A stretch of DNA of 64,000 nucleotides from Escherichia coli (GCF_044324875.1 NZ_CP172185.1); one strand, 5' to 3'. Positions 36,936-37,289 are shown, counted from the first letter of the stretch. Numbers and translations: made by a program. Notes: generated from the sequence alone by a model not told the origin.

Positions 36936-36960
36936 AAAAAAAATCACCCATTCAGGTGAT
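36936..36960 (-). terminator. Rho-independent terminator on the minus strand between yjbH and psiE
   Basis: Minus-strand ATCACCTGAATGGGTGAT hairpin followed by TTTTTTTT. Confidence 0.65.
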
Positions 36961-37040
36961 TCCCAGCCACCAGCAATGCGCGAAAAATCGACAATGTTCC
37001 TCTGGAACAAATGAAACGTAACCTGATAAAGGTGGTAAAA

Positions 37041-37289
37041 ATGAAGCCTTATTTTGCTGCTTTGATGTTATCAGTCTCTGCTCTTCCTGCTTATGCTGGT
37101 CCGCTCGGTACTGCTGATAAAACCGACCTACCGCAAAGCAATGTCTCCAGCCCAATGATGGCCCAGTCGCTCAGGCAACCAGACCTGCAACCAATATCGA
37201 CGGACAGGAAGACAGAATGTTTTCGCCTTTACACACCAGATCGCAAACCGGGGGTGAACTGCGTTCCTGATGGCTCGACAGGCCATTAA
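37041..37289 (+). CDS. Small predicted secreted protein (82 aa from ATG 37041; track ORF starts at 37011)
   Basis: N-terminal signal peptide MKPYFAALMLSVSALPAYA-GPLG and AGGTGG Shine-Dalgarno 5-6 nt upstream; may match a small K-12 ORF but not verified. Confidence 0.5.
   Translation: MKPYFAALMLSVSALPAYAGPLGTADKTDLPQSNVSSPMMAQSLRQPDLQPISTDRKTECFRLYTPDRKPGVNCVPDGSTGH

Follow-up and report, generated by a model that had tools for sequence, protein, structure and literature searches.

The small open reading frame (ORF) between psiE and yjbH on the plus strand of this Escherichia coli chromosome is the catalogued gene yjbT (b4620, UniProt YJBT_ECOLI, PF17089), and the pattern of substitution between genera shows it to be a real protein-coding gene under strong purifying selection. 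Very probably it is a genuine gene, monocistronic, whose small product is exported. The window (the whole stretch of 64,000 nucleotides that was analyzed) has the gene order malG(+), psiE(-), yjbT(+), yjbH(-), identical to that of K-12 and other RefSeq genomes. The genes are located as follows.

35402-36292, + strand: malG, an ORF
36386..36796, - strand: psiE, the divergent upstream neighbor, from ORF and annotation
37041..37289, + strand: yjbT coding sequence with the best-supported start (82 aa and stop), from the PF17089 match, the starts of homologues and a Shine-Dalgarno pairing of -8.6 kcal/mol
37336..39432, - strand: yjbH, the convergent neighbor and last gene of yjbEFGH, from ORF and annotation

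Identity, distribution and coding character of yjbT

The 92-aa translation scores 213.3 bits against the Pfam model PF17089 'YjbT' (E=3.3e-64), above the cut-off of 27 that is the curated gathering threshold for membership across the full model, and the match covers residues 1-92 on model positions 1-92. The gene occupies the orthologous position to that of K-12, where yjbT (b4620, 'PF17089 family protein YjbT') is annotated between yjbH and psiE and is convergent with yjbH. RefSeq names the product 'periplasmic protein' or 'hypothetical protein'. In UniRef the exact window protein is 'Uncharacterized protein YjbT', and shares a 90% cluster with YJBT_ECOLI. The K-12 and window proteins are products of the same gene, with two residue differences (A14V and T28A in the 82-aa numbering). 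A preliminary description of this DNA had located an ORF of 82 aa from ATG 37041 on the plus strand and the stop of yjbH at 37336, and both are present there (the latter as the codon 37336-37338 on the minus strand). It had not recognized the small ORF as a catalogued gene; both the K-12 annotation and Pfam have listed yjbT for years. No paper specific to YjbT was found in the literature searched, where yjbT appears in two relevant papers, in each as a table entry, and a search for 'b4620' and 'yjbS' gave nothing useful. There is no yjbT entry in the supplements of a Ribo-seq preprint, the PRECISE iModulon paper or a 2026 transcriptome paper.

The surroundings of the gene differ from those of K-12 in two respects, in that the window strain has neither the REP-like insertion upstream of yjbT nor the xylE that follows beyond psiE. 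K-12 and DL21 have xylE between malG and psiE; it is absent from the window at 36292-36386. Here the 3' end of psiE comes directly after malG, an arrangement shared with strains CFIAFB20140388 and EC42405. The plus strand at 36285-36387, comprising the 3' end of malG and its terminator (a hairpin at 36363-36380 and then T7), is identical to the region of the K-12 sRNA MalH (b4807); Rfam 15 gives no match to this MalH-like region at E<=1.

yjbT is a core E. coli gene, found in very few other lineages. Of 5426 complete E. coli genomes, 5416 contain the 601-bp yjbT region and 5414 at least 80% of the 279-nt coding sequence. We sampled 60 rows down the ranking. In 59 of these the match is full length, ungapped over 279 nt and at least 97.8% identical, and in every one of the 60 an annotated coding sequence underlies the match. 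By genome scan yjbT was also detected in E. albertii, E. whittamii, two further Escherichia species and Kluyvera georgiana. That scan used exact peptide patterns and so reaches near relatives only; the more distant members discussed below come from a profile search. A word-indexed search returned near-identical E. coli proteins, a few frameshifted variants and two 82-aa relatives of 50-52% identity. The frameshifted or fused variants (P0007, P0012, P0013, P0014 and P0020, with P0014 from Shigella flexneri) are either occasional pseudogenes or assembly errors. In one natural isolate, E. coli EC42405 (locus L003), the whole yjbT cassette is missing. Positions 2498-2617 of that locus correspond to the window at ~36884-37335, and in place of the cassette and both of its flanking hairpins there is a 35-nt sequence, itself a hairpin (GCGCCGAATAC...GTATTCGGCGC), that ends exactly at the yjbH stop. 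Since EC42405 is without the entire cassette and a few strains have frameshifted copies, yjbT is dispensable.

The ORF ends with a stop codon at 37287-37289, and would encode 82 aa from ATG 37041 or 92 aa from the in-frame ATG 37011. Its length is no evidence for a gene, because chance ORFs of similar size abound; the same stretch holds dozens of 60-100 aa that overlap the neighboring genes. The evidence for yjbT as a gene is comparative. We counted substitutions between E. coli and Kluyvera-type sequences by the method of Nei and Gojobori. In the last 26 codons (residues 57-82) Sd is 15-18 on ~19 synonymous sites, so that pS is saturated at 0.80-0.95, and Nd is 2-2.7 on ~59 non-synonymous sites, giving pN of 0.03-0.05. 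For residues 20-56 pN is ~0.5. Changes in the DNA alignment between the genera are concentrated at the third codon positions of the plus-strand frame.

This pattern already contradicts the reading in which the ORF is untranslated and the conserved stretch is non-coding, whether as the 3' UTR of yjbH, an antisense RNA or a chance ORF, or in which a minus-strand ORF at 36952-37155 is the real gene. The DNA of 36940-37340 is very similar within Escherichia, with the minus-strand ORF open there too, and chance ORFs of the size of yjbT are common, both of which lend it something. Yet yjbT is also conserved in other genomic contexts, and a search of 36200-37500 on both strands with the Rfam 15 covariance models gave no match at E<=1. 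We regard such a reading as most improbable. The minus-strand ORF has 67 codons, is initiated by TTG and runs antisense to the 5' region of yjbT. It is open in all Escherichia species because their DNA is nearly identical there, but it gathers non-synonymous changes among them and is filled with stops in Kluyvera, so we reject it as a gene. The K-12 annotation gives no support to its identification as 'yjbS', and conservation of this ORF is lacking.

The preliminary description had suggested that the ORF could be a genuine small periplasmic protein, to be checked by its conservation in related genomes and by the balance of synonymous and non-synonymous variation. The gene has stood up to both, with purifying selection on the protein between Escherichia and Kluyvera, and with presence in 5414 of 5426 E. 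coli genomes, in the other Escherichia species and in Kluyvera, interrupted in a few strains. Family membership, selection and core status all speak for the gene; the periplasmic location is a prediction from the sequence.

Translation start and predicted protein

The elements that bear on the start of translation and on the organization of the protein are these.

37011..37040, + strand: 10-codon N-terminal extension of the 92-aa form (RefSeq, K-12 and UniProt), probably 5' UTR, with a weak Shine-Dalgarno sequence
37029-37035, + strand: Shine-Dalgarno sequence AAGGTGG, 5 nt before ATG 37041
37041..37097, + strand: predicted Sec signal peptide of 19 aa with cleavage after AYA; n/h/c pattern in 9/9 aligned members
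37098..37211, + strand: fast-evolving, low-complexity middle (residues 20-57), with 20% mean pairwise identity, pN ~0.5 and low pLDDT
37212..37271, + strand: conserved C-terminal core T58-D77, TxC[FY]x9PG[VIL]NC[VI]PD, with two invariant cysteines among its invariant residues, and pN 0.03-0.05 over residues 57-82

ATG 37041 (82 aa) is better supported than the ATG 37011 (92 aa) of the databases, because it has the stronger Shine-Dalgarno sequence and because every distant homologue begins at the equivalent methionine. The strong Shine-Dalgarno sequence reported in the preliminary description, AAGGTGG, is predicted to pair with the 3' end of 16S rRNA with an energy of -8.6 kcal/mol, which is among the strongest 3% for the 993 ATGs of the window. 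The block (G/A)AGGTGGT(A/G)AAAATG (AAGGTGGTAAAAATG) hardly varies within the family, loci in other contexts among them, and between Escherichia and the Kluyvera-type loci neither the Shine-Dalgarno sequence nor ATG 37041 changes. Full-length distant members of the family are provided by P0015 (79 aa), P0016 (85 aa), P0018 (82 aa), P0021 (76 aa) and P0022 (75 aa). None has an N-terminal extension, and all start M-[KRT]-x-Y-[FW], corresponding to 37041.

It is unlikely that the databases are right, with a start at ATG 37011 giving a 92-aa precursor that has a longer and more basic n-region (MKRNLIKVVKMK...). RefSeq, K-12 and UniProt use this start, and its ATG is kept in all Escherichia species. 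The Pfam model also spans all 92 positions, which probably reflects its construction from E. coli-type sequences. Against a start at 37011, its ATG is missing in the Kluyvera-type loci, the predicted pairing is -3.3 compared with -8.6 kcal/mol, the distant homologues are all of 75-85 aa and begin at the methionine equivalent to 37041, and ATG 37011 lies directly 3' of a conserved hairpin. The annotated start of yjbT is probably 10 codons too far upstream, and the start at 37041, as originally described, is to be preferred on the strength of its Shine-Dalgarno sequence, the alignment of homologue methionines and its invariance out to the Kluyvera-type loci. The predicted mature protein is identical for both start codons.

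The YjbT family is very small; a profile search of 1.84 billion representative proteins gave 13 hits. Nine diverse members were aligned. The N-terminus of YjbT (MKPYFAALMLSVSALPAYA followed by GP) combines a basic n-region with a hydrophobic core and an A-x-A motif for cleavage, judged by inspection and by the family pattern. By the same inspection it reads as a cleavable signal peptide, MK-PYFAALMLSVSALP-AYA with cleavage before the next G, having small residues at -3 and -1. The hydrophobic character and the small residues at -3 and -1 are kept in all nine members, despite a mean pairwise identity of 43% over residues 1-19. The signal peptide had been called textbook, and its n/h/c layout and conservation throughout the family are consistent with that prediction. 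There is no lipobox, [LVI][ASTVI][GAS]C, as the E. coli protein has no cysteine within its signal peptide or directly behind it, and YjbT as a bacterial lipoprotein processed by SPase II is rejected for that reason. The cysteine-containing variants APC and MTC (in P0016, P0021 and P0022) do not fit a lipobox.

Beyond the signal peptide the family is divided sharply. Mean pairwise identity among the nine members is 20% in the S/T/P/Q/A-rich stretch of residues 20-57, 63% in the C-terminal core of residues 58-77, and 34% in the optional tail G-S-T-G-H of residues 78-82. The invariant residues of the core are T58, C60, P70, G71, N73, C74, P76 and D77, and the cysteines of the core are always 13 residues apart. 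The window protein carries all 10 residues that are invariant in the nine-member alignment. Cys60 and Cys74 would form a putative disulfide-closed loop. AlphaFold2 run with shallow alignments of seven and nine sequences gave pLDDT values of 51 and 56 with essentially no secondary structure, which fits a largely disordered protein. Searching the PDB with the mature protein gave no match at E<=10, scans of YjbT against NCBIfam, PHROGs and PADLOC gave no hits, and PF17089 is the only Pfam match at E<=1. From the conservation we infer that the functional part of YjbT is the two-cysteine loop of ~20 residues, placed behind a freely evolving spacer.

Flanking hairpins, upstream elements and possible antisense transcription

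The interval around the coding sequence contains several further elements.

36936..36961, - strand: hairpin AATCACC/GGTGATT and U8, terminator-like, between yjbT and the psiE promoter region; fold -14.8 kcal/mol
36960..36988, + strand: candidate weak sigma-70-type promoter, TTCCCA (36960-65), 17-nt spacer and AAAAAT (36983-88), with transcription start at ~36994
36995..37009, + strand: hairpin TGTTCC-TCT-GGAACA, ~32 nt upstream of the start codon, a probable 5'-UTR stem-loop
37297..37328, + strand: GC-rich hairpin GGTGCCAGT/ACTGGCACC and then TTTT, terminator-like for yjbT and possibly bidirectional

Of nine loci, eight have a predicted TGTTCC-loop-GGAACA hairpin, the loop of which measures 3-5 nt. 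Its closing pair shows a compensatory change from T-A to G-C in locus L016, a wobble in Kluyvera georgiana and a mismatch in L017; one sequence came out of register when these short segments were aligned with MAFFT. Because the length of the loop varies, the element is more easily understood as an RNA hairpin than as a dimeric operator. An operator TGTTCC-N3-GGAACA is disfavored by a spacer that ranges from 3 to 5 nt.

We infer a weak sigma-70-type promoter upstream of this hairpin. The aligned -10-like hexamer reads AAAAAT, AACAAT, AACACT or GATAAT in the relatives of yjbT; a consensus promoter scan found no sigma-70 site near the gene, and no site for a regulator was identified. Three other candidates were rejected by eye. 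A sigma-E promoter (GGAAC ... TCTGA) would have a spacing 5 nt too short, a sigma-28 promoter with the -10-like CCTGATAA has no -35 match and would start transcription inside the Shine-Dalgarno sequence, and a CRP-like TCACC-N6-GGTGA has its half-sites in the wrong order.

An element AATCACCC...(GG)TGAT lies ~95 nt before the start codon and is common to most loci of the family. AATCACCC and the TGAT/T-rich stretch that follows it are conserved upstream in L004, L012, L014, L016, L017, L020 and L021, and in L014, L016, L017 and L020 it is the plus strand that carries the T-run. The element may serve as a terminator in both directions, as an activator site centered near -42 of the candidate promoter, or as both. 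Between the psiE promoter region and the upstream hairpin, K-12-like E. coli and all the other Escherichia species have a REP/BIME-like insertion of ~55-90 bp (GCCGGATAAG...GCATCCGGC). This is missing from the window at ~36908-36935, as seen by comparison with L002 and L008-L011. RefSeq sometimes annotates a minus-strand 'hypothetical protein' of 47 aa over the insertion.

The preliminary description had placed a strong minus-strand terminator at 36936-36960, and a terminator-like element is present there, a stable hairpin followed by a U-run in the manner of an intrinsic terminator. The AATCACC-loop-GGTGATT hairpin (36942-36961) has a stem of 7-8 bp, a folding energy of -14.8 kcal/mol and z = -3.2, and A8 on the plus strand (36936-43) provides U8 on the minus strand. 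The hairpin is kept in all Escherichia species, and its 5' half, AATCACCC, is found upstream of homologues in unrelated contexts. The second hairpin (37297-37324, then TTTT) fills the 46 nt between the convergent stops of yjbT and yjbH. It has a folding energy of -21 kcal/mol with z = -3.9 on the plus strand, and -17.1 kcal/mol with a poor U-tract on the minus strand. Both hairpins were missed by a simple terminator scan. A GC-rich hairpin of differing sequence is found 3' of the stop codon in 7 of 8 family loci; L021 (P0022) has neither this hairpin nor the 5'-UTR one.

As the U-tract of the inter-stop hairpin is on the yjbT side, and is poor in the direction of yjbH, read-through from yjbH is plausible. 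Transcription of yjbEFGH in Escherichia would then continue antisense over yjbT as far as the hairpin and U-run at 36936-36961. Antisense overlap of the yjbT mRNA with the 3' UTR of yjbH, raised in the preliminary description, is accordingly a plausible arrangement for Escherichia. The upstream minus-strand hairpin with its U-run is strong only in loci that have yjbH as the immediate convergent neighbor (Escherichia, L014 and L016), and is weak in the five other contexts of yjbT. It is suggestive, with the small numbers involved, that hairpin strength tracks a convergent yjbH. Judged across the loci compared, antisense overlap with yjbH is not a conserved property of the yjbT family.

Directional RNA-seq of strain BW25113 under inhibition of LolCDE (PMC5105897) detected yjbT at a low level. 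The signal rose from 5.5 to 14.2 and 23.4 expression units; for yjbH the same tables give 4.7 rising to 24.3 and 46.0, and for psiE 3.4 rising to 6.4 and 9.0 (PMC5105897). The methods of that study are silent on strand-aware counting, so the rise in yjbT could be induction of the sense transcript or could come from the Rcs-induced yjbH by antisense read-through. In a separate study, genomic SELEX placed an FlhDC-binding peak inside yjbH, tabulated between yjbG/yjbH and yjbT (PMC9962212). The peak lies at 4236932-4237161 in K-12 (PMC9962212), and the quoted sequence ACCGGACATCTGACCGCCTACTGGACGCCATCTTT corresponds to the window at ~37685-37730, within yjbH and ~400 nt downstream of the yjbT stop (37289).

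Genomic context and possible role of YjbT

The order malEFG-psiE-yjbT-yjbHGFE is kept in two further lineages, in which YjbT is 48-54% identical (L014-L016). In Kluyvera georgiana the gene for a hexapeptide acetyltransferase lies between yjbT and yjbH, and the neighborhoods of P0008, P0018, P0021 and P0022 are unrelated (GH1/PTS, CsbD, DUF2767 and DcuC/NUDIX). Most of the loci in unrelated contexts keep the upstream element, the 5'-UTR hairpin, the Shine-Dalgarno sequence and the downstream hairpin. Because these homologues mostly retain their own upstream elements and a downstream hairpin, yjbT looks like a self-contained monocistronic unit that is not an obligate part of the yjb operon, and on this comparison its linkage to yjbEFGH appears weak.

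That synteny, extending from Escherichia to two distant lineages, could instead indicate that YjbT is an accessory component or regulator of exopolysaccharide export by YjbEFGH (GfcABCD-like), its position reflecting a coupled regulation mediated by antisense transcription. The restriction of the strong upstream hairpin and U-run to the syntenic loci is in keeping with this, as is the rise of the yjbT signal together with that of yjbH under envelope stress. But the co-induction may be an artefact of counting that was not strand aware, and yjbT and yjbH are convergent and not co-transcribed. There are moreover no yjb genes near P0008, P0018, P0021 or P0022, and in K. georgiana the acetyltransferase gene parts yjbT from yjbH. 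There is a small chance that YjbT has such a role.

We return to yjbT as an independent gene. It would be transcribed and translated by signals of its own that are independent of the yjb operon, namely a weak promoter, a 5'-UTR hairpin, a strong Shine-Dalgarno sequence and a terminator hairpin, with translation starting from ATG 37041. The 19-residue signal peptide would direct Sec export and be cleaved by signal peptidase I after AYA. The product would have ~63 residues, located in the periplasm or secreted further. The N-terminal two thirds of the mature protein would be a disordered and freely evolving spacer, and the C-terminal ~20 residues, a loop closed by a Cys60-Cys74 disulfide, would be the functional module. 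The most likely mechanism, at about even odds if the gene is real, is that this loop serves as a small epitope by which an envelope partner is bound, and that the protein is not an enzyme.

The known proteins to which YjbT may be likened are of two kinds. The first are small periplasmic proteins of E. coli induced by envelope stress, such as YbgS, YncJ and CpxP. They are similar in that YjbT is small, is predicted to bear a signal peptide, is monocistronic, and has an RNA signal that goes up under lipoprotein-trafficking stress. However, in the LolCDE-inhibitor data set the genes for those proteins rise 12-35x, compared with 2.6-4.2x for yjbT (PMC5105897). The induction of yjbT is modest and could reflect antisense read-through, and YjbT is unrelated in sequence to those proteins.

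The second comparison is with the heat-stable enterotoxin type STa. The precursor of STa, at ~70-80 aa, is made up of a Sec signal peptide of 19 aa, a 'pro' middle with little conservation and a short, conserved C-terminal peptide containing cysteines. The layout of YjbT is similar, with a signal peptide, a variable middle and a cysteine-containing C-terminal core, but YjbT has two cysteines where STa has six, and there is no sequence similarity. Release of a C-terminal peptide is putative for YjbT, and the basic pair before its core (RK or RR) is not conserved, being replaced by HV, HR, LN or YN in other members. An STa-type enterotoxin is rejected on the grounds that there are two cysteines only, that PF17089 is the sole Pfam match at E<=1 and that the PDB gave no match at E<=10. 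A related proposal is that YjbT is a pre-pro-peptide, the middle of which would be removed after Sec export to release the invariant, disulfide-closed C-terminal peptide of ~20-25 residues (TECFRLYTPDRKPGVNCVPDGSTGH) as a diffusible signal or toxin-like peptide in the periplasm or outside the cell. We consider this quite improbable. If it were true, YjbT would be a previously unrecognized class of peptide in Escherichia and a few relatives, and antisense transcripts reading through from the Rcs-controlled yjbEFGH might gate how much of it is made.

YjbT is the type member of PF17089, and is neither a lipoprotein nor an ST-type toxin. The preferred reading, in which it is a small exported protein expressed from its own unit, contains nothing that should surprise a specialist, and makes YjbT a tractable uncharacterized member of that class. 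For curators the value lies in the correction of the start codon, which is probable, in a family signature and a conserved upstream architecture, and in the distribution of a gene that belongs to the core of E. coli and yet is found in very few other lineages.
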